Source of the DNA: Dictyostelium discoideum
Taxonomy: Eukaryota
Assembly: GCA_000004695.1 (NCBI GenBank)
Contig: CM000155.2
Coordinates: forward strand, 1,824,001 to 1,888,000
Direction: 5' to 3'
DNA length: 64,000 bases
Part shown: positions 6,985 through 46,535 of the stretch, piece after piece
Layout of the letters: each line of letters begins with the position of its first letter
How positions within the stretch are numbered: position 1 is the stretch's first letter
Notes under the pieces: generated by a model
Database searches by the model: none
The model's input: only the letters and a program-made list of their open reading frames with translations
What the model was told of the DNA's origin: nothing
Position numbers and translations under genes: made by a program

Positions 6985-9081
<2,097 letters not shown>

Positions 9082-9157: not shown

Positions 9158-9376
9158 AAATATAAAAAAAGATTAAAAAATTAAATAATAAAAAGGTAAA
9201 TTAAAAAATATTTTTTTAAAAAACTAACAATTCATATTATAAAAATAAATTTTTAATTATTTATTTATTAAATGTAAAAGAAATCATAAATTAAATAAAT
9301 TTATATTTTTTTTCAAGTTGATTATTTTACAATGTATATAATTTTTTTACATTTTTGGTGAAATTTCATCAAAAAT

Positions 9377-9449
9377 GCCTGGATGGCTCAGTAGGCAGAG
9401 CGAGCGGCTGTTAACCGCTAGGTCCATGGTTCGATCCCATGTCTAGGCG
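9377..9449 (+). tRNA. tRNA-Asn (anticodon GUU)
   Basis: Cloverleaf structure. Acceptor GCCTGGA/TCTAGGC, anticodon stem AGCGG/CCGCT with loop CTGTTAA, T-arm GGTTCGATCC, discriminator G. Confidence 0.9.
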
Positions 9450-9712
9450 ATACTTTTTTATTTTCAATATCATTTTTTTTTTTATCTTAAAAATGGATTC
9501 TCTACATCGAGACCTTTCAAAATATCAAAAATTCATCAGAATTGGCCAACGTTGAAAAAAGTTAATGCCTTTTTTTTATAATAATTAATTGATTGGTTAA
9601 AAAAAAAAAAAAAGAAATTTTTTTTTTTATTTTCACCATTTCAAAAAAAAAAAAATAAAAAACATATTGGTCTAGATTCAGTGAAATTGTTAAATTAAAA
9701 TATAAAAATAAA

Positions 9713-10901: not shown

Positions 10902-11927
10902 TTATTTCTTTTGACCAAAATATTTAACAAACCAAATTATAAATTTATCAATTTTTGAAGATTTTTCAAATGGATTTATAATTTTATTCATTTTTTCTTG
11001 TTCTAATTTATGTTTTTCACCTTGTGATTGATTTGTTGAAACAAAGCCTTCTTCAATATTACGAGTTGGAACATAAACATTTTCAAATGTTTTTTGTTGA
11101 TCATTACTATTATTATTATTATTATTATTATTGTTTATTGATTTTTCTAATCTCTCAATTTCTTTTTCAATTAATGAAATTGATTTTTTATCAACTTCAT
11201 CCATTTTCATTCTTAGAAGAGTTTGTTTCTTTTTTTGTAAAATTAATTTTTGATCATCAAATGTGGTAGTGGTGGTGGTGGTTGGTCTTGCACCAGGTGC
11301 TTTATCAACTATATCTTTACTATTTTCAATGTATTCACTTTTTGATACAAAATAAGGTTCTTTAATTTCCTTTGAACCCAATGGTACATGTGGTAAAATG
11401 AATGCTGATACTCTTCTCTCTTCTTCAGCTAATATATTATAAGTACCAATTGCATTGATTGTTGTCATTGTTTCAACATTTACTTTATAACGAGTTGAAA
11501 TATCTTTTATTAATTGGTCTGGTAATTTTGAATGTGTTGCTCCTGTACCAATTAATAGGAATTCAGTTGGTGGTTCAACGATATCCAAAGTTGCCAATGT
11601 GTCAATGGTAATATCTTCAACTGAATGAACATCCCAGAGGAATAGTTGTTGTGGCATTATATTAATTGATCCTGGTATTAAGGTTTTGTTAATTGAAAAC
11701 CCAGATTCAACATATCCATCAATATTATATACCTTTGATAAATCACCTTGACTCATTTCAAATATATTACCATTGTCAATTCCTTTACAATAATTTCTTT
11801 TAAATATTTTATTTGATTTACCAAAATTTCCCAATTTATTATTATAATTATTACTATTACTATATATTATATTTTGATTTATTAAAATTCCTTTTATATT
11901 TTTTAAATTATAAAAATTTTTAATCAT
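10902..11927 (-). CDS. NDUFAF3-like complex I assembly factor (Mth938/DUF498 domain) with a C-terminal coiled-coil/Asn-rich extension.
   Basis: 341 aa ORF. The core YNIDGYVESGFSINKTLIPGSINIMPQQLFLWDVHSVEDITIDTLATLDIVEPPTEFLLIGTGATHSKLPDQLIKDISTRYKVNVETMTTINAIGTYNILAEEERRVSAFILP aligns motif-by-motif with NDUFAF3 (W.V....DIT.DS...LEP..EI.V.GTG....L......GI.VEV.DT.NA..T.N.L..EGR.V..AL.P). Confidence 0.75.
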   Translation of the reverse strand: MIKNFYNLKNIKGILINQNIIYSNSNNYNNKLGNFGKSNKIFKRNYCKGIDNGNIFEMSQGDLSKVYNIDGYVESGFSINKTLIPGSINIMPQQLFLWDVHSVEDITIDTLATLDIVEPPTEFLLIGTGATHSKLPDQLIKDISTRYKVNVETMTTINAIGTYNILAEEERRVSAFILPHVPLGSKEIKEPYFVSKSEYIENSKDIVDKAPGARPTTTTTTTFDDQKLILQKKKQTLLRMKMDEVDKKSISLIEKEIERLEKSINNNNNNNNNSNDQQKTFENVYVPTRNIEEGFVSTNQSQGEKHKLEQEKMNKIINPFEKSSKIDKFIIWFVKYFGQKK

Positions 11928-12360
11928 CTTTTTTTCTTTATTTGTTGTGGAATTGTGAATTAATTTTTTTTTATATGAAAACTAAAAAACTTTTTTTTTT
12001 TTTTTTTTCGAGAATTGCATAAAAAATAATTTCTTTTTTTTTTTTTTCAAACAACTATTTAATTTTATTTATTTTTCATATTATTCTAGTATAAGTAGAG
12101 AACTCAAAAATACACAAAATTATATAAAAGAATGTTTTTTGAATTTTATTTTTTATTTTTTATTTTTTATAATTGTTTTTTTATTTAGAATAACAACAAG
12201 TAGACAATAAAATTTTATATTATTACTTTTGATTAAAACATCTTTTTTGTCCAAACTTTTTTCTAAATCTTTTTTTATTTTATCGTCGGGTTCGTGATTG
12301 ATGACATATTATAAATAAAAAAATCGGATGACGTTATATTTTTTAAAAAAATAATAAAAA

Positions 12361-12431
12361 GCGTATGTGGTCTAGTGGTATGATGCATCCCTGCCACGGA
12401 TGCGAACTGGGTTCGATTCCCAGCATACGCA
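12361..12431 (+). tRNA. tRNA-Gly (anticodon GCC)
   Basis: Acceptor GCGTATG/CATACGC, anticodon stem CATCC/GGATG with loop CTGCCAC, T-arm GGGTTCGATTCCC, discriminator A. A conserved downstream element ATTTCCGAACTTCGGA lies ~20 bp 3'. Confidence 0.9.
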
Positions 12432-12599
12432 CATCTTTTTTGAAGTTTACAGGATTTCCGAACTTCGGATGGGGTGAAAAATAAAGAATTTTACAAAGTT
12501 TGTCAAAACTGAAAATAAAAACATTTTTTTTGTTTTTCTAAAAAATCAATTAAGTTTTCATTCTTTCAAACAAATACCACATTGTTTTTAATTTGGATA

Positions 12600-13480
12600 A
12601 AATTATAATTTATAGTAAATAATAAAAAAAAAAAAAAAATTGTAAATTATTATTACTAAACTTTTGGACTTGCAAATTTGATAATAGCTCTTGATGTAAT
12701 GTATGATTGTCAAATTATAATTGCAGGTTTGAGTAATAGTTTAAATATTTGATCAGAAATTATCGCTGAAACAATTGTCTCAAATGCTGGTTCACTGAAA
12801 TCAGTATCCAAGAGAGTTATTAGATTTCCATAATTTACACATTTAATCCCCATTCAAGTTTTCTTTGTGGAATCTAAGATTTGAAACAGGTCGTGGAAAA
12901 CTTTATGAACTAGATTCAACAATAAATTTAATAAAAATAATGAAAAAAAAATTAGAAGGGAGATAAATTCCAAATATTTTTTTGTATTTATTTATAAAAT
13001 TTTATAAAATTTTTAGAGTGAAAAATAATAATTTTAAATCAGAAGTTAAACCATTTTATTTTTAGAATTTAATTGTTTGGGAACACTATAATTTACAGAA
13101 CCATATGAATAATTTTTTTCTATTTTTGTCATATTCAAGAGTTGATAGTTTGTACCATTTGTTAATGCCGTCATGATTCCATAAGGGAAGTTTTAGGATA
13201 GGTCATGGTTTATACATATATATACCCATTCAAAGTATTCTTTGTGGAATCTTAAATTTGTGTAGTCTATGTTAACCTCTGACCCTTCTTCATATTTGGT
13301 AGAATTATAGGTGTAATCCTTTTTATAAATTTATTGTTGAATCTAGTCCTCTCGTTGGTCCAATGTTTTCATGAAAAAGAAGTTTTTCGGTTTTGGTCCA
13401 AAATTTAATAATTAAAGAATAGATGAACTAAAGGATCAATTAAAGCATCAGAAACCAATTATATTACCTCATCTCGCCAA
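12600..13480. other. ORF-free, non-AT-rich spacer (~45% GC locally) between the inverted tRNA-Gly pair, with internal direct and inverted repeats. Candidate degenerate mobile-element remnant.
   Basis: Composition departs sharply from the surrounding >85% AT spacer. A direct repeat CCCATTCAAG(T)TTTCTTTGTGGAATCT(A)AGATTTG occurs at 12841..12878 and 13225..13262. An inverted pair GAACTAGATTCAACAATAAATTTA (12907..12930) and TAAATTTATTGTTGAATCTAGTCC (13290..13313) is also present. No ORF over 60 aa. Confidence 0.3.
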
Positions 13481-13564
13481 AAAAGCTGTGAATATCAATT
13501 CAAATCAGACGTACAAATATATTTTTCCGAAGTTCGGAAATTTCGAAGCCATTAAAAAAGGTTT

Positions 13565-13635
13565 TGCGTATGCTGGGAATCGAACCCAGTTCGCATCCGT
13601 GGCAGGGATGCATCATACCACTAGACCACATACGC
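13565..13635 (-). tRNA. tRNA-Gly (anticodon GCC), second copy, identical in sequence to 12361..12431 but inverted.
   Basis: Exact reverse complement of the + strand tRNA-Gly. The same ATTTCCGAACTTCGGA element lies ~25 bp downstream on its own strand (13510..13530). Confidence 0.9.
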
Positions 13636-13695
13636 TTTTTGATATAATTTTGGAAAAAATAACGAAATGCCATTTTTAAAATATTGTGTATAATA

Positions 13696-13749
<54 letters not shown>

Positions 13750-13922
13750 TTTTTTTTTTTTTTTTTTTTAAATATTGATTAATAACAGTTTATCAATTAA
13801 AGGAAATAAACGATATTTTAAAAGTTTTATTTATTGAATTTAATTATTTTTTTTTTGTATAGAAGTTATTCTTTTTTTGATTCGAATTTTTTTTTTTTTT
13901 TCAAAAAAGGGATTTGAACTGG

Positions 13923-13954
13923 TTTTTTTTTTTTTTTTACCTAAAAGCGGTGTA
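13923..13954 (-). mobile_element. Extremely 5'-truncated poly(A) retroelement 3' end: (on - strand) TACACCGCTTTTAGGT + A16, flanked by a ~14-bp target-site duplication GGGATTTGAACTGG (13909..13922 and 13956..13969). It sits 37-50 bp downstream of tRNA-His in the same orientation, consistent with a TRE3-type tRNA-targeting non-LTR retrotransposon remnant.
   Basis: The same 16-nt + oligo(A) block recurs at 46258..46288, downstream of tRNA-Leu. The duplicated flank is itself the B-box-like external B box (GGTCACCAGTTCAAATCCCC on the - strand). Confidence 0.4.
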
Positions 13955-14005
13955 GGGGATTTGAACTGGTGACCTTAGTTTTTTCATTAAAAAAGTGCCG
14001 CGACC

Positions 14006-14076
14006 TGGAATCGAACCAGGGTCAACAGAGCCACAATCTGATGTACTACCACTATACTATCACGGCTTATTGTGAT
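14006..14076 (-). tRNA. tRNA-His (anticodon GUG)
   Basis: The reverse complement folds as a cloverleaf. Acceptor GCCGTGA/TCGCGGC, anticodon stem TCAGA/TCTGT with loop TTGTGGC, T-arm CCTGGTTCGATTCCAGG, discriminator A. There is no encoded G-1, which is normal for eukaryotes. Confidence 0.85.
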
Positions 14077-14483
14077 ATTTTTCATTAAAAATTTCTCTTC
14101 CCCATTTTATTTTAAAATGATTATCAAAAAATATCACAATTGGCTTTTTTTTTAGTTAAAAATTTCTCTTTAAGGTTTTTTTTTTAAAAAATATTAATTA
14201 AAATATTTTATCAAGTCCCCCAACCTAATAATATTCAAAGATACAAACAAAGATAAAAACATAGTATAATATTAAAAGATATACAAAAACTATATAATTA
14301 TAAAACAGTTAATGATAAAGTTGAAAATTATAATTTATTAAATTGAGAGGAAAAAAAAAAAAAAAAGTAAGATTCTACAAAATTATATTCTATTATTTTC
14401 TTTTTTTATTTTTTTTTTTATTTTTTTATTTTTTTTATTTTTTTAAAAATAAATTTTACTTTTTTTTTTTACTCGTTAAATTA

Positions 14484-16464: not shown

Positions 16465-17967
16465 ATGAATAATAATATTAAACTTAATGAATTAATTTTT
16501 AATGAAATTGAACCATTATTAATTTATAATTGTTCATTTAAAAGGATATTAGAATTATCATTATTATCAAAATCAATATTTAAAAAAATTCAATATCAAA
16601 TTTCAAATCAACAAAAAGAAATTAAATTTAAACCAGAAATTAATGAATTTTTAAATTATATTTATAATTTTAAAAAAAATGATAATAATAATAAATTTAA
16701 TTCATTTAATGAACCAATAATAAATAATGAATTAATTTCAACAATTTTAAATAATAATAATAATTATAAATTTAAATTAATTCAATTTAAAGAAATTGAA
16801 AATTTAAATTGTATTAATAATAATGGTAGTTATCAAGCAAAACAAAATAATGAAAATATTAAAACCAATTTAAAAAGAATTTGTAAAAATTTAAAAACAG
16901 TTTATTATTCAAATTATTTTCCAATTGATACTTTAGATGAAGATCCAACACTTGATAATTTTTTTAATTTTGAAAAAGTTGAACTTTATTGGGACTGTGA
17001 TGAATCACCACCAGAATCATTCATTGATGAATGTGATAACCAAGATGATTATCAATCATTTAATTACTCATTTGAATTTTTAAAAAGATATAAATCAATA
17101 AAGAAAATTTCAATTAGAACTGTAGATAATGAATCAAATTTACATTTAAAAAATTTAAATAATTTATTTAAAAATATTAATAATATTAATCAATTAAATA
17201 AAATTCAATTCAATTATCAAAATACTTCATATAATTTTTTAATAAATGAAAAATTAAATAATATTAAAAATTTAAATTCATTTTCAATTAGATTAGGTAA
17301 TTTTGGTTTAAATATTATAAACGAAGAAAATGAAGAAAATCAAGAAAATGAAGATTTGGAAATATTAAATGAAATAATTAATAATAATTGTGAAAATACT
17401 TCTAAATTAATTGAAATTATTTTTAAAAATATTAACTTATTAAAAAATAATAAATTAAGGAAATTAATAATTAATAAATGTCATTCTGATGATAATGAAT
17501 TTAATTCACCAAATTCAAATAATCCATGTGAATTTTTAAAATTATTATTAAATGAAAATTATTCAATAGAAAATTTAAGAATTTTAGGTTTGGCTGTATA
17601 TGATTTAACTAAATATGATGATTTTAAATTATTATCAGAATTAATTAATAAAAATAATAAAATTAATCAATTAATTACAAATATTCAATCATTTGAACAA
17701 TTTTTAAAACATTGTAATGAAAATAAAAATATTGAAATTTTAAAAATTTCATTAGATAAATATTCAGATAATTTAGAATTATTAAATAATATAAATTGGG
17801 AAAATATTTTAAATTTAATAAATAATAATAAATCATTAAAATCAATTTATTTATATAATAATGATCAATTTGATGAAAATTTACAATTTCTAAATAATTT
17901 AAATTCATTAAAAAATAATAATAATAATAATAATTTAAATATTACAATTTTAAATAATTTTAAATAA
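16465..17967 (+). CDS. Hypothetical Asn/Ile/Leu-rich 500 aa protein with degenerate leucine-rich-repeat-like periodicity. The N-terminus (LNELIFNEIEPLLIYNCSFKRILELSLLSKSIFKKI) is weakly F-box-like.
   Basis: Long uninterrupted ORF in otherwise stop-rich AT DNA. Its 3' third is duplicated downstream at 19193..20882. No confident family assignment. Confidence 0.6.
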   Translation: MNNNIKLNELIFNEIEPLLIYNCSFKRILELSLLSKSIFKKIQYQISNQQKEIKFKPEINEFLNYIYNFKKNDNNNKFNSFNEPIINNELISTILNNNNNYKFKLIQFKEIENLNCINNNGSYQAKQNNENIKTNLKRICKNLKTVYYSNYFPIDTLDEDPTLDNFFNFEKVELYWDCDESPPESFIDECDNQDDYQSFNYSFEFLKRYKSIKKISIRTVDNESNLHLKNLNNLFKNINNINQLNKIQFNYQNTSYNFLINEKLNNIKNLNSFSIRLGNFGLNIINEENEENQENEDLEILNEIINNNCENTSKLIEIIFKNINLLKNNKLRKLIINKCHSDDNEFNSPNSNNPCEFLKLLLNENYSIENLRILGLAVYDLTKYDDFKLLSELINKNNKINQLITNIQSFEQFLKHCNENKNIEILKISLDKYSDNLELLNNINWENILNLINNNKSLKSIYLYNNDQFDENLQFLNNLNSLKNNNNNNNLNITILNNFK

Positions 17968-18217
17968 TTTCCCAAAAAAAAAAAAAAAAAAAAATAAAAT
18001 TATATTTATAGAATTTTTATAGTGCAATTTTTTTTTTTTTCCCAAAAATAATTTCGAGAGAAGACAAAAATAGTAAAAGTTTTGGTTTACCAAGAAAAGG
18101 TAGAGTAACAAAATATTAAAACAAATTAGGAATGACAAATAGAAATTATAATCTTAGGGAACTATGCTCAAAACAAATAATGATATATTTATTTTAATAG
18201 GGTTTTTTAATTGTTTT

Positions 18218-19192: not shown

Positions 19193-20882
19193 TTTTGGTT
19201 TAAATATGATAAATGAAGAAAATGAAGAAAATGAAGATTTGGAAATATTAAATGAAATAATTAATAATGTGAAAATACTTCTAAATTAATTGAAATTATT
19301 TTTAAAAATATTAACTTATTAAAAAATAAAAATAATAAATTAATAATTAATAATTGATAAAGAAATTAATAATTAATAAATGTCATTCTGATGATAATGA
19401 ATTTAATTCACCAAATTCAAATAATCCTGTAACAACTGGTGGTCGGTTTCATCAGTGTTAGTTTTTCCTAATGATTTTTTTATTGTGTTGGTTATTGCTG
19501 CTGAAGTTATTGGTGTTGTAATGTTTGGGTGATGATGGTGGTGTTGAATGGTTATTTAATTGTTGTTGAGATTGTTGATTTATTAATTGAATGTGTTGTT
19601 GAAGAAGTTGATTTTGTTTATCTATTACCTGCTGATGTTCCCTTATTTGACGTTGCTGTTCATTGAATGTTGATACCTTTGGTTGTTGTTGTTGTTCCTC
19701 ATTATCCTGTTGTTGAGATTCATTATTATCAATATCTTCATTATTATTATTGTTGTTATTATTATTATTATTTGACATTCTTTTAAAATAAATTATTTAA
19801 TAAAATTGGGTTATTTATTATTATTAATTTAATTTATTGTTTTAATATTACTGAATTTATTTATTTTATTATTATAAAAATAAATGATTAATTATTTAAG
19901 AAATAAATGTACACATATATTTAATTGATGACCATATCCCTATCGCGTTTTTATTATTTTTAACTATTTATTACTGAGGTTAAATTAGAAACCTAGTTTC
20001 TTTTTATAGTCCTCAGATTTGAGCGAACTCAAATCTGTTAACTACTCCAACCTCAGCAGATAGGGTTAGATCCAATTTAAACTACAATATTATATTATTT
20101 TAATTTTTAATTAAATTATTTTTAAATTTATATTATTATTTTATATGATGATTTTGTGTGTGTGACATTTTTAATATCTGGTATATAATATCTATTGTGA
20201 AAACTTTTTTTTATTATTTTCTGAATTGTGTGTGTTATAATAAAATGTTTAAACAAAACTATATTCTAAATTATTATTATTTATTTTTTTGAATTATTAT
20301 TTAGTTGTGTTTAGTGAGTTTATTATATAAAATGAAACAATTTATTAAAATAAATTAAGTTAGTAATAATTAATATTGAATTATTAATTCAATATTAATA
20401 GTTATTTTTAAATGTTCTGTTTAGAACATTAAATGATAATTATTCAATGGCAAATTAAAGAATTTTATTTTTAGCTGTATATGATTCAACTAAAAATGAT
20501 GATGATTTTAAATTATTATCAGAGTTTATTAATAAAAATAATAAAATTAATCAATTTGTTACACATATTCACTCATTTGAACAATTTTTAAAACATTGTA
20601 ATGAAAATAAAAATATTGAAATTTTAAAAATTTCATTAGATAAATATTCAGATAATTTAGAATTATTAAATAATATAAATTTGGAAAATATTTTAAATTT
20701 AATAAATAATAATAAATCATTAAAATCAATTTATTTATATAATAATGATCAATTTGATGAAAATTTACAATTTCTAAATAATTTAAATTCATTAAAAAAT
20801 TATAATAATAATTTAAATTTTAAAATTTTAAATTTAAATAATTTTTAAAAAAAAAAAAATTATATTTATAGAATTTTTATAG
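19193..20882 (+). pseudogene. Degenerate partial duplicate (~90% identity) of the 3' ~720 bp of the 16465..17967 gene. Two blocks, 19193..19427 (matching 17302..17525) and 20441..20882 (matching 17561..18022), are split by a ~1.0 kb insertion (19428..20440) that replaces 35 bp of the parental sequence.
   Basis: Direct alignment by eye. Long shared strings include GAAGATTTGGAAATATTAAATGAAATAATTAATAAT, TGTCATTCTGATGATAATGAATTTAATTCACCAAATTCAAATAATCC and the whole ...CATTGTAATGAAAATAAAAATATTGAAATTTTAAAAATTTCATTAGATAAATATTCAGATAATTTAGAATTATTAAATAATATAAAT... block. ORF 20559..20792(-) is a near-copy of ORF 17675..17908(-). The copy lacks the 5' 840 bp and the start codon. Confidence 0.6.
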
Positions 20883-45423: not shown

Positions 45424-45494
45424 GGGAAATTAGTTAAGTGGTATAATGTTATCTTAGGGTGATAGCGTCCTGAGTTCGATTCTCGGATTTCCCC
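45424..45494 (+). tRNA. tRNA-Pro (anticodon AGG)
   Basis: Acceptor GGGAAAT/ATTTCCC, anticodon stem TTATC/GATAG with loop TTAGGGT, T-arm CTGAGTTCGATTCTCGG, discriminator C. Confidence 0.85.
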
Positions 45495-45520
45495 CAAAAA
45501 TGTTTACCTGCACCAAAATC

Positions 45521-45545
45521 CAGGCACTGGTTCGATTCTCACAAT
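45521..45545 (+). promoter_or_regulatory. External B box (exB), CCAGGCACTGGTTCGATTCTCACAA, ~30 bp downstream of tRNA-Pro. A second TFIIIC-type B-box copy outside the tRNA body, as described for Dictyostelium tRNA genes.
   Basis: GGTTCGATTCTC matches the B-box consensus GGTTCGANTCC but lies outside any cloverleaf. Analogous B-box-like elements are seen downstream of tRNA-His (13955..13974, - strand) and tRNA-Leu (46409..46428, - strand). Confidence 0.5.
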
Positions 45546-46177
45546 TATAGTTAATTGCAAAAAATTATTAATTTTGATAGATTCATAAATAAAACTATCA
45601 ATTATGGTTTATTTCCTTTCTGATTAATCAAAATTATAAAACAAAATTTCAATAGTATGGGGAGAGGTGATTTGACTTTTATGGTGTATGTTTTTAAAAT
45701 TCTATAGTAGAACGGGAAAAGTTTAACATCTTTTAATTTTCAAGGTTATTTATTTCAATAAACGCATGATTTAGGTGGAAGTAATGGAAGTGAAAGTTAA
45801 AATTTATTCAATTTCTTAAAAGGTATGGTCAATGAACATAATAACAAATAATATGATTAAATTAAATTGGGTTTTCATTGGAATTGTTATTGTATTATTT
45901 ATATATTCTATCTTAATTATTATACAATCTCCTGTAGAAAGTTTATTATAAAAAAAATTTATATATAGTTTTAAATAGAAATAAAATCCTTTAACGCTTT
46001 AACTTAACTAATTTTTCATATTCCTATAAACTTTAACTAATTTTATTAAATTCCTATGAGAACATACTAATTTGGTTAATTATTTTATTTTTGGACCCTA
46101 AATGAAATTCTAAAATAATTTTATTGTTGAAAAAATTAAGATTACTGGTAATTTCTTTTTTTGTACTTCTTTTCTGA

Positions 46178-46408
46178 AGTTGATATTTTTAGTTGATATT
46201 TATAGTTGATATTTATAGTTGATATTTATAGTTGATATTTATAGTTGATATTTATAGTTTTTTTTTTTTTTTACCTAAAAGCGGTGTAAGTTGATATTTA
46301 TAGTTGATATTTATAGTTGATGTTTATAGTTGATGTTTATAGTTGATGTTTATAGTTGATGTTTATAGTTGATGTTTATAGTTGATGTTTATAGTTGATG
46401 TTTATAGT
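46178..46408. repeat. 13-bp minisatellite (AGTTGATATTTAT)n, about 16 units, switching to the AGTTGATGTTTAT variant in the distal half. It is interrupted at 46258..46288 by the retroelement tail.
   Basis: Direct reading shows exact tandem units. Confidence 0.85.
46258..46288 (-). mobile_element. Second copy of the 5'-truncated poly(A) retroelement tail (TACACCGCTTTTAGGT + A15 on the - strand). It sits inside the minisatellite, ~165 bp downstream of tRNA-Leu in the same orientation.
   Basis: Identical 16-nt tail and oligo(A) to 13923..13954. The flanks are the tandem repeat, so the target-site duplication cannot be sized but is compatible. Confidence 0.4.
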
Positions 46409-46452
46409 TGAGAGTCGAACCTGTGATCGTTTAATGTATGGCATAAAGTCAT

Positions 46453-46535
46453 TGCAAGAGGCGAGATTCGAACTCGCGAACCGAATGGATGAGATCTTAA
46501 GTCACACGGATTTAACCAGACTTTCCTACCCTTGC
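46453..46535 (-). tRNA. tRNA-Leu (anticodon UAA), class II with a long variable arm.
   Basis: The reverse complement has acceptor GCAAGGG/CTCTTGC, anticodon stem TGTGA/TCTCA with loop CTTAAGA, a ~12-nt variable arm, T-arm GCGAGTTCGAATCTCGC and discriminator A. Confidence 0.75.

Follow-up and report, generated by a model that had tools for sequence, protein, structure and literature searches.

In the genome paper of Eichinger et al. 2005, a sizeable fraction of the tRNA genes of Dictyostelium discoideum is said to lie close to one or two others that share the anticodon, as pairs or triplets. The TRE3 retrotransposons have two ORFs and a poly(A) tail, and ORF2 has an APE-RT-Zn finger organization (PMC5006619, PMC5391098). 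Their insertion sites lie some 100 bp past the 3′ ends of tRNA genes, and a TRE is associated with 61% of the tRNA genes (PMC5006619, PMC5391098). According to the passage of PMC3159450 that cites Siol et al. 2006, 66% of the tRNA genes in D. discoideum have an external B box (exB) with the core GTTCRAnYC, at a distance of about 41 bp downstream. Yeast Extra-TFIIIC (ETC) sites are mentioned in a passage of PMC5391098.

Here, we describe a locus that is textbook Dictyostelium, with tRNA genes as landing pads for TRE3, a same-anticodon pair, and extragenic downstream elements. We consider it highly likely that the whole is a standard Dictyostelium tRNA neighborhood, made up of an old gene pair, TRE3-type debris, and a selected motif. 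This kind of locus is already known and ordinary, and it holds one modestly interesting conserved motif.

RESULTS

Two identical tRNA-Gly(GCC) genes face each other across a 1133-bp spacer

We analyzed 64,000 nucleotides of D. discoideum DNA (the window), within which an initial annotation had pointed to a pair of identical tRNA-Gly(GCC) genes (Table 1). ARAGORN, Rfam, and pairwise alignment agree with that call. The genes are identical at 71 of 71 positions, and both score 63.6 bits, above the Rfam tRNA (RF00005) gathering score of 29. Each has the cloverleaf and anticodon of a eukaryotic tRNA gene, and a B-box scan found the internal B box GTTCGATTC at gene positions 51 to 59, in agreement with GTTCRANNC. 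The pair had been described as facing, which holds in the tail-to-tail sense: the genes are convergent, with their 3′ ends turned to each other across the spacer (12432 to 13564). In the left arm of the extended inverted repeat, the tRNA gene is preceded by about 42 nt of 5′ flank and followed by 13 nt of 3′ flank.

The neighboring proteins are D. discoideum proteins. Assembly GCA_054883475.1, which is also D. discoideum and possibly not independent, matches positions 11928 to 14479 except in homopolymer lengths. Rfam scans of the whole window at gathering scores and of 12250 to 14200 at E ≤ 10 returned nothing beyond the tRNAs and subthreshold noise. A search for further tRNA-Gly loci by means of spurious ORFs called over the gene yielded zero candidates. 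Exact 42-nt scans of JGI metagenomes and GTDB genomes, two collections free of Dictyostelium, gave no additional copy of this tRNA.

Table 1. Features of the tRNA-Gly(GCC) locus, in window coordinates
Feature	Position	Strand	Basis or remark
Left arm of extended inverted repeat	12319-12444	+	Partner 13552-13677, 88% complementarity
tRNA-Gly(GCC) gene 1	12361-12431	+	ARAGORN (to 12432), Rfam RF00005 63.6 bits; proximal to DUF498 gene
T6 run, presumed RNA polymerase III terminator of gene 1	12436-12441	+	Sequence
16-mer ATTTCCGAACTTCGGA after gene 1	12454-12469	+	Core CCGAACTTC 12458-12466, from +27
AT-rich tract, 20% GC, ending in A16 (12624-12639)	12470-12639	+	Sequence
Block with coding-like composition, stops in all frames	12640-12828		28.7% GC over 12640-12900
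55-nt TRE3-type ORF2 fragment, direct repeat copy A	12829-12883	-	'..NLRFHKE.FEWG.KCVNY' region, blastn
~55-nt ORF2 fragment, inverted repeat arm A	12886-12940	+	93-96% repeat, translation vs P0010
ORF2 3′ end, TRE3-type non-LTR retrotransposon	13046-~13475	-	HMMER best E 9e-10, tblastn, blastn
16-mer ATTTCCGAACTTCGGA after gene 2	13526-13541	-	Core 13529-13537, from +28
T6 run, presumed RNA polymerase III terminator of gene 2	13554-13559	-	Sequence
tRNA-Gly(GCC) gene 2	13565-13635	-	ARAGORN, Rfam RF00005 63.6 bits; distal copy

A 9-nt core is conserved downstream of the Gly genes

The 16-bp element that the initial annotation had seen after both Gly genes is exact. ATTTCCGAACTTCGGA occurs twice in the window, each time 23 to 24 nt past a Gly gene. 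When up to three mismatches are allowed, the window has 4 matches where 0.32 would be expected, and none of 100 shuffles reached 4. We aligned ten 3′ flanks and found conservation of a T4 to T6 run at +3 to +11 and of the core CCGAACTTC, and of nothing else. The invariant bases of the core are GAAnTTC. The exact 9-mer is common to 8 of the 10 flanks, and the maximum in 5000 shuffles was 3. CCGAACTTC occurs exactly nine times in about 220 kb of loci and twice in the window, in every case downstream of a Gly gene. The core starts at +25 to +28 in 10 of 11 genes, with the spacing held to ±2 nt, and in the eleventh it is shifted by about 150 nt through a tandem-repeat expansion. The positions around the motif (+1 to +22 and +37 to +60) are at background identity, both within and between species. 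The string CCGAACTTCGG was found in no relevant paper.

The 9-nt core has been held at +25 to +28 in six species while its surroundings were randomized. Because it is kept in such surroundings, selection appears to act on it as a DNA element. Solely from its position and conservation, we infer that the motif most likely does the job of an external B box, as an extragenic anchor to which the Pol III machinery or a factor associated with it would attach. A more specific proposal, which we put forward tentatively, is that CCGAACTTC (GAAnTTC) at about +27 is a control element not described before, which acts downstream of a single tRNA species and, in the D. discoideum group, would take the place of exB at the tRNA-Gly(GCC) genes. 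Its binding partner would be TFIIIC in an unusual mode, or a factor distinct from the TFIIIC module that reads B boxes, and the element would affect re-initiation by Pol III, regulation of the individual gene, or the targeting of retrotransposons. The sample consists of one locus with its orthologues and paralogues, and the motif may be particular to this locus and not a trait of the tRNA-Gly(GCC) family.

The element had been presented as a candidate exB/TFIIIC-related sequence. The position is that of exB: canonical exB is at +29 to +35 in 7 of 9 other sampled tRNA genes, and five species retain it at the orthologous tRNA-His. However, the sequence is not that of a B box. Neither GTTCRANYC with up to one mismatch nor GTTCRANNC is present on either strand in the 110 nt downstream of either Gly gene. 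The best B-box-like match of the motif, GTTCGGAAA on the opposite strand, has 3 mismatches to GTTCRAnYC; that strand reads GTTCGG, with G where the consensus needs A. Since the motif fails GTTCRANNC on both strands, binding by TFIIIC is doubtful. The annotation had also expected the element near other tRNA genes, and in the roughly 285 kb that we examined it is absent at other tRNA species.

We therefore regard it as unlikely that the 16-mer is a degenerate, inverted external B box (GAAGTTCGG) that binds tauB of TFIIIC. It would be suitably placed, since GAACTTC falls at +29/+30; GTTCG on the opposite strand supplies the first five bases of the B-box core, and the conservation resembles that of the tRNA-His exB. 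However, position 6 is G, not A, and the 3′ half (NNC / ATCC) is missing and unconserved. The conserved bases also run to the wrong side for a B box, and GAAnTTC is palindromic, which a B box is not.

Less likely still is a functionless motif, kept by descent and by gene conversion between paralogues. Every copy examined does come from an orthologue or paralogue of one ancestral gene, and the 5′ flank hints at gene conversion. However, the background identity on both sides of the motif means that tracts of descent or conversion do not preserve its neighborhood. Moreover, the single-copy gene of D. firmibasis retains the motif, the distance from the gene is constant to ±2 nt, and 0 of 5000 shuffles match the observed sharing.

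It is very improbable that the motif acts in RNA, as a UCCGAACUUCGGA hairpin in read-through transcripts that would serve as a back-up terminator or processing signal. A stem of 5 to 7 pairs with a 3-nt loop is possible in D. discoideum, and a consensus scan marks the gene 2 copy as terminator-like, but the motif lies downstream of the conserved T4 to T6 terminator. The outer stem bases are unconserved, D. dimigraforme and D. citrinum keep only GAAnTTC, whose 1-nt loop cannot fold, and zero compensatory changes were seen. An HSF- or STAT-type site was also considered for GAAnTTC and rejected, because the half-site spacing is wrong for such sites.

The spacer contains fragments of a TRE3-type retrotransposon

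The longest ORF in the spacer has 47 aa, in keeping with its earlier description as ORF free. Its GC content is 25.3% overall and 28% in blocks 12640 to 12900 and 13046 to 13475. Neighboring intergenic stretches have 14 to 16% GC, and neighboring coding sequence has 25 to 31%. The repeats, reported initially as a 36-bp direct and a 24-bp inverted repeat, are real, but both are somewhat longer and less perfect. The direct repeat (12834/6 to 12883 and 13209/13 to 13260) is 48 to 52 nt long and 77 to 85% identical, and the inverted repeat (12909 to 12936/7 and 13320 to 13347) is 28 to 29 nt long and 93 to 96% identical. The spacer is not conserved in sister species. blastn and tblastn searches with it against the 64-kb window gave only low-complexity A/T matches and the internal repeats.

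Searches of wider scope identified the right-hand block. In a HMMER search of 1.84 billion proteins, 6 of 8 matches were Dictyostelium ORF2-like fragments (P0010 to P0013, P0015, and P0016; E of 9e-10 to 1.5e-4), the database relatives all being named "hypothetical protein." One of them, P0012, scores 30.7 bits for RVT_1 (cutoff 29.6) and matches the 1147-aa ORF2 of L004 (E of 2e-56), which has Exo_endo_phos and RVT_1 domains. tblastn and blastn place window positions 13440 to 13070 (minus strand) on the last ~130 residues of ORF2 (P0010 to P0016), and the blastn identity of the remnant to L008 and L010 is 75 to 80%. The remnant covers only the ORF2 region after the Zn knuckle, about the last 130 to 140 codons, and it is 5′ truncated, frameshifted, and stop containing. 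Its start lies some 90 bp past the end of gene 2, whose orientation it shares, and it holds copy B of the direct repeat (13209 to 13260) and arm B of the inverted repeat (13320 to 13347).

The fragment that carries copy A of the direct repeat is 91% identical to L008 6035-6091 and 84% identical to L010 7552-7608 by blastn. The fragment with arm A of the inverted repeat is the 'TGRGK..TRFNNKF' segment, which lies just upstream in the element and is in the opposite orientation here (by eye, L010 ~7431-7495). These ORF2-derived pieces account for the coding-like GC content and the absence of ORFs in the right-hand block, and for both repeats. By homology, the right-hand block and both repeats are TRE3-type ORF2 debris of a dispersed family, the membership that the initial annotation had proposed to check.

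Copies of this family lie downstream of, and are oriented as, genes for tRNA-Ser (L008), tRNA-Pro (L010 and L012), tRNA-Ile (L011), and tRNA-His (L003, L005, and L006). Besides the fragment in the window, eight copies are downstream of tRNA genes in the orientation of the gene, and the L009 copy alone, in a TE cluster, has no tRNA gene nearby. The Gly-Gly spacer itself contains one full-length element and three tail fragments in D. dimigraforme, and a retroelement tail in D. cf. discoideum Y. The region downstream of Dictyostelium tRNA genes is the target of TRE3-type non-LTR retrotransposons. Here, at least one element was inserted some 90 bp beyond gene 2 in the same orientation, was 5′ truncated, and has since decayed; two more ~55-nt pieces of the same ORF2 region sit in mid-spacer. 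The sole tail candidate for the 13046 to 13475 remnant is a T7 run on the plus strand (12979 to 12985), with no clear tail or target-site duplication; other family copies show clear poly(A) tails.

The left part of the spacer is less clear. The AT-rich tract may be the tail of another retroelement in gene 1 orientation, and its alignment with the 3′ UTRs of family copies was unconvincing. The block at 12640 to 12828 had no match in a word-indexed protein search of both strands, in Pfam, or by blastn and tblastn in 12 Dictyostelium loci, and its fold z-scores of -2.1 and +0.7 are not convincing. Because this block has no detectable homologue, the spacer is largely but not wholly explained as retrotransposon debris, and the decayed mobile element of the initial annotation stands for the right-hand block and both repeats.

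We see little chance that the GC-richer spacer is an unannotated host gene or noncoding RNA gene. Its composition is coding-like, it has a 92-codon frame with a single stop, weak box C/D snoRNA-like matches occur at 13381 to 13480 (19 bits, E of 2.8 to 9.6), and the plus strand of 12640 to 12830 folds at z = -2.1. However, the 92-codon frame is retrotransposon ORF2, the annotated assembly calls no gene there, and the Rfam scores are far under the gathering scores. A host gene would also sit poorly with a spacer that sister species have not kept.

The gene pair is old

A tRNA scan of seven syntenic loci found a convergent pair at L001 to L004, a tandem arrangement at L005, a single gene at L006, and none at L007. 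The pair is at the same position in D. discoideum, two D. cf. discoideum genomes, D. dimigraforme, and D. citrinum. In D. citrinum it is a tandem pair; the syntenic locus has one gene in D. firmibasis and no gene in D. purpureum. All 11 tRNA-Gly(GCC) genes across six genomes are identical, and identity is therefore uninformative on age.

We then compared the flanks. The identity of the 3′ flanks is 0.36 to 0.55 within species versus 0.42 between species, which is background. The 5′ flank from -25 to -1 is 0.68 to 0.96 identical within four inverted pairs versus 0.49 ± 0.12 between species (rank test, p = 0.003; the comparisons are not independent). At the D. discoideum locus, the 5′ flanks of the two arms are about 71% identical over 45 nt. 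Outside some 25 to 45 nt of 5′ flank and the motif, the arms do not match, and the suggestion that the whole spacer is a locally duplicated, inverted tRNA unit does not hold. The flanks beyond -25 and +1 are at background identity, the 9-nt core excepted, unlike those of a recent segmental duplication.

The two Gly genes are paralogues, and synteny and flank divergence indicate that the pair is old and not a recent duplication. The tRNA duplication that the initial annotation saw recorded here is correct as to paralogy, but the identity of the genes does not mark a recent event, since at least five related genomes share the pair and the flanks have diverged. The tail-to-tail arrangement at this position predates the split of D. 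discoideum, D. dimigraforme, and D. citrinum, and the genes are kept identical because purifying selection acts on the tRNA. Gene conversion over short tracts, which would also homogenize about 25 nt of 5′ flank, probably contributes as an inferred step; its signal comes from five nonindependent pairs in AT-rich sequence.

A recent local inverted duplication, in which gene identity and the 16-mer would be left over from a young duplicate with the spacer as its decaying flank, is scarcely credible: identical genes inside a 126-nt inverted repeat at 88%, the ~71% 5′ flank identity, and the same 16-mer at equal offset on both arms speak for it, but it is largely refuted by the synteny of the pair in five genomes, and gene identity carries no age signal, the 12 nt between terminator and motif and all beyond the motif are at background identity, and the internal repeats come from a dispersed retrotransposon and not from a palindromic flank.

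DISCUSSION

As the six-genome comparison shows, identity between tRNA copies is no sign that they were duplicated recently. The comparison also hints at short-tract conversion that is confined, in inverted pairs, to the gene and about 25 nt of 5′ flank. As in the clustered tRNA pairs of D. discoideum, two identical same-anticodon genes lie about 1 kb apart. However, the pair here is old and syntenic in several species rather than a sign of a recent duplication wave.

The spacer fragments resemble TRE3 in the homology to the ORF2 C terminus and in having relatives that carry Exo_endo_phos and RVT_1. They also resemble it in location: the fragment in the window lies about 90 bp downstream of a tRNA gene in the same orientation, and its siblings follow Ser, Pro, Ile, and His genes. 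Here, however, the element is merely a ~430-bp decayed 3′ fragment with two ~55-nt pieces. As in TRE-TRE tandems, the fragments pile up side by side. Twin priming (5′ inversion) of LINE-1 insertions was reportedly described by Ostertag and Kazazian in 2001. The order at 12829 to 12940 is similar, with 12886 to 12940 antisense and then 12829 to 12883 sense on the element strand, and about 57 nt missing at the junction. However, the sense piece here ends after 55 nt, without a poly(A) tail. Because it stops there, a later rearrangement or chance juxtaposition is possible.

The motif is a non-B-box 9-nt element kept at the exB position for as long as the gene has existed in the group. If it is general for tRNA-Gly(GCC), it would offer a handle on gene-specific Pol III control or on how downstream-integrating retrotransposons measure distance. 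Like yeast ETC sites, it is a short extragenic element that would be tied to the Pol III machinery; however, ETC sites are B boxes that lie far from any tRNA gene, whereas the motif is gene adjacent and not a B box. It differs from exB in that CCGAACTTC / GAAnTTC is off the B-box consensus on either strand and, in the sample examined, follows only tRNA-Gly(GCC) genes. Like exB, it is extragenic, lies beyond the terminator at an equal distance from the gene, and, as at tRNA-His, is kept across species amid diverging surroundings.

The convergent tRNA-Gly(GCC) pair is shared with relatives

ARAGORN and Rfam identified two tRNA-Gly(GCC) genes around a spacer at 12432-13564 (Table). The 71-nt genes are identical and convergent, with 1133 bp between them, which confirms the inverted, paralogous pair described in the initial annotation. 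The adjoining gene at 10902-11927 (-) encodes a protein with an identical counterpart in Dictyostelium discoideum, and a second D. discoideum assembly matches the window at the pair, homopolymer lengths aside.

We retrieved syntenic loci from seven genomes via the neighbouring DUF498 gene and scanned them for tRNA genes. The convergent pair was present in D. discoideum, two D. cf. discoideum genomes, and D. dimigraforme. D. citrinum has both Gly genes on one strand, D. firmibasis has a single Gly gene, and the scan found no Gly gene at the D. purpureum syntenic locus. All 11 Gly genes of these loci are mutually identical. Therefore, their identity reflects selection on the tRNA, not recency. 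Because the pair is syntenic in relatives and 11/11 genes are identical, the duplication is judged not to be a recent one.

The 3' flank (+1 to +22 and +37 to +60) and the distal 5' flank (-50 to -26) are at background identity (about 0.35 to 0.45), both between the D. discoideum copies and between species. In the proximal 5' flank (-25 to -1), the four inverted pairs had within-species identities of 0.72, 0.96, 0.72, and 0.68, compared with a lower 0.49 ± 0.12 between species. These few, non-independent comparisons hint that short gene-conversion tracts may underlie the within-species likeness.

Features of the tRNA-Gly(GCC) pair and its spacer, in window positions
Feature	Position	Strand	Evidence
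tRNA-Gly(GCC) gene 1	12361-12431	+	ARAGORN and Rfam, 63.6 bits (threshold 29)
tRNA-Gly(GCC) gene 2	13565-13635	-	ARAGORN and Rfam, 63.6 bits (threshold 29)
Direct repeat	12834-12883 vs 13209-13260		77-85% identical
Inverted repeat	12909-12936 vs 13320-13347		93-96% identical
Direct-repeat copy A	12829-12883	-	additional 55-nt fragment, from the ORF2 segment also present in 13440-13070 (-); 91% identical to the copy at locus L008
Inverted-repeat arm A	12886-12940	+	ORF2 segment from just upstream in the element, opposite orientation

The spacer contains the remains of a retrotransposon

The spacer has two blocks at 28% GC, compared with 14 to 16% in neighbouring intergenic and 25 to 31% in neighbouring coding sequence; the whole window is at 21.9%. 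The longest spacer ORF is 47 aa, so the spacer is ORF-free as first described, and the direct and inverted repeats reported there were recovered.

Conceptual translation of 13049-13330 (-) gave one frame with a single stop. An exhaustive HMMER search with it against 1.84 billion proteins returned eight matches, six of them short Dictyostelium "hypothetical proteins" (best E value, 9e-10). One of these six, P0012 (503 aa), scored above the Pfam RVT_1 threshold, and its C-terminal end has a zinc knuckle followed by the region matching the window. P0012 in turn matched (E value, 2e-56) a 1147-aa D. dimigraforme ORF2, with Exo_endo_phos and RVT_1 domains, that sits between the two Gly genes of that species. 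By tblastn and blastn, 13440 to 13070 (-) corresponds to the C-terminal ~130 residues of this ORF2, although frameshifts, stops, and a deletion of ~87 nt have damaged the copy in the window. That copy starts ~90 bp downstream of gene 2, in the orientation of gene 2. Copy A and arm A are arranged as a twin-priming inversion would leave them, but they are too short for proof.

Other family copies lie downstream of tRNA-Ser, tRNA-Pro (twice), tRNA-Ile, and tRNA-His (three species), in the orientation of the tRNA gene, and one more lies inside a transposon cluster. D. cf. discoideum Y has a retroelement tail within the same Gly-Gly spacer. In D. dimigraforme (L004, 3368-8889), this spacer is filled by a full-length element resembling TRE3, a tRNA-gene-targeting non-LTR retrotransposon. 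The element has a 219-aa ORF1 and the 1147-aa ORF2 with APE and RT, followed by three copies (one inverted) of its own ~160-bp 3' end. The ORF2 homology and the TRE3-like siting, including the same spacer in relatives, identify both repeats and the GC-richer block on the right as retrotransposon debris. To that extent, the proposed decayed mobile element stands. Block 12640-12828 had no relative detected by protein search, Pfam, or blastn/tblastn against 12 Dictyostelium loci, and tract 12470-12639, ending in A16, gave no convincing alignment to the 3' UTRs of family copies.

The L004 locus also has a repeated AACAATAGTACAATAT that resembles a target-site duplication and lies ~60 to 70 bp beyond the proximal one of the two Gly genes. 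At L008 (5671-7669), a TRE3-type fragment also lies between convergent tRNA genes, Ser-TGA (+) and Leu-CAA (-), which suggests that such pairs are recurrent retroelement traps. Downstream of tRNA-His (13995-14066, -) in the window, the stretch 13696-13860 includes the 3'-terminal ~65 nt of another retroelement (13770-13835, -). Its poly(A) is T22 on the + strand (13748-13769), and (ATT)18 follows at 13696-13749. The tail, ATAAATAAAACT..TTTATTTCCTTTAA..ATTAATCAATATT plus an A-run, recurs after tRNA-Ser at L008 and within the Gly-Gly spacer at L003. Elsewhere in the window, two ~440-bp segments (17547-17986 and 20428-20859) have 92.5% mutual identity; one overlaps the 3' end of a 500-aa Asn-rich ORF (16465-17967), the other is ~2.9 kb away, and they are probably paralogous genes.

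A conserved non-B-box motif follows the Gly genes

In the 64 kb, the 16-mer ATTTCCGAACTTCGGA has two exact matches, one after each Gly gene, as had been noted, at a distance of 23 to 24 nt. We aligned the 60 nt 3' of 10 Gly genes from the syntenic loci. Only the T-run terminator and CCGAACTTC are conserved, the latter with invariant G, A, A, T, T, and C (GAAnTTC). The exact 9-mer was common to 8 of the 10 flanks; the maximum in 5000 shuffles was 3. The 9-nt core of the 16-mer starts at +25 to +28 in 10 of 11 Gly genes. In the remaining one (proximal, L003), an 18-19-nt tandem-repeat expansion (~9210-9379) has shifted the core by ~150 nt, yet it is still present as TTTCTGAACTTCGGA. Across the ~285 kb of Dictyostelium DNA that was searched, every exact match lies downstream of a Gly gene. 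The proximal Gly gene of D. cf. discoideum Z (L002, 8798-8806) is followed at the usual position by a variant of the motif, TTTCGGAACTTC, and ~80 nt downstream by a second copy, exact but inverted (CGAAGTTCGGG).

Although the motif is at the position of the external B box (exB), it fails the consensus GTTCRANNC on both strands: GTTCGG is found on the opposite strand, and the B box lacks its 3' half. The suggested exB/TFIIIC-related box is therefore not a canonical exB. In the positive control, orthologous tRNA-His genes, a canonical exB was found at about +29 to +34 in five species, in scrambled surroundings. Among 9 further tRNA genes in the sample, 7 had GTTCRANNC at +29 to +35, in agreement with the published exB ~41 bp downstream of 66% of tRNA genes (PMC3159450). 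Because the Gly motif sits past the terminator, and a potential hairpin is not kept in D. dimigraforme or D. citrinum, it would more likely act at the DNA level than at the RNA level. Judged from its conservation and position, the motif appears to be a cis element under selection and probably takes the place of exB.

At 13880-13975 in the window, tRNA-His has two copies of its exB, CCAGTTCAAATCCC, at +29 and at +76, with a long A-run after each one, and a third B-box-like ATTCGAATC at +108; this looks like a local duplication of the exB unit. At tRNA-Leu(TAA) (46453-46535, -), a 13-nt tandem array (46178-46411; 18.5 copies, 85% matches) starts directly after the exB, similar to the expansion that parts the L003 gene from its motif. 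The tRNA-Pro(AGG) and tRNA-Leu(TAA) genes (in regions 45424-45560 and 46380-46535) have no run of at least four T's between gene end and exB, whereas the Gly, His, and Asn genes do have a T run; tRNA-Pro(AGG) has a lower Rfam score (49.9 bits). The tRNA-Asn(GTT) gene (9451-9560 and orthologues) lacks an exB in 7/7 species, and a different block, AAAAATGGATTCYCYACA..., is conserved ~40 nt downstream among D. discoideum-group species.

Comparison with known elements

TRE3 elements lie ~100 bp downstream of tRNA genes, 61% of tRNA genes are TRE associated, and tandems arise where a gene is hit more than once (PMC5006619, PMC5391098). What remains new is the conserved motif that is not a B box and, to a marginal degree, the homogenised 5' flanks of the inverted pairs. 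In other respects the Gly-Gly locus is typical of what is already known of the Dictyostelium genome, and the placement of its retroelement family downstream of tRNA genes is the behaviour that defines TRE3.
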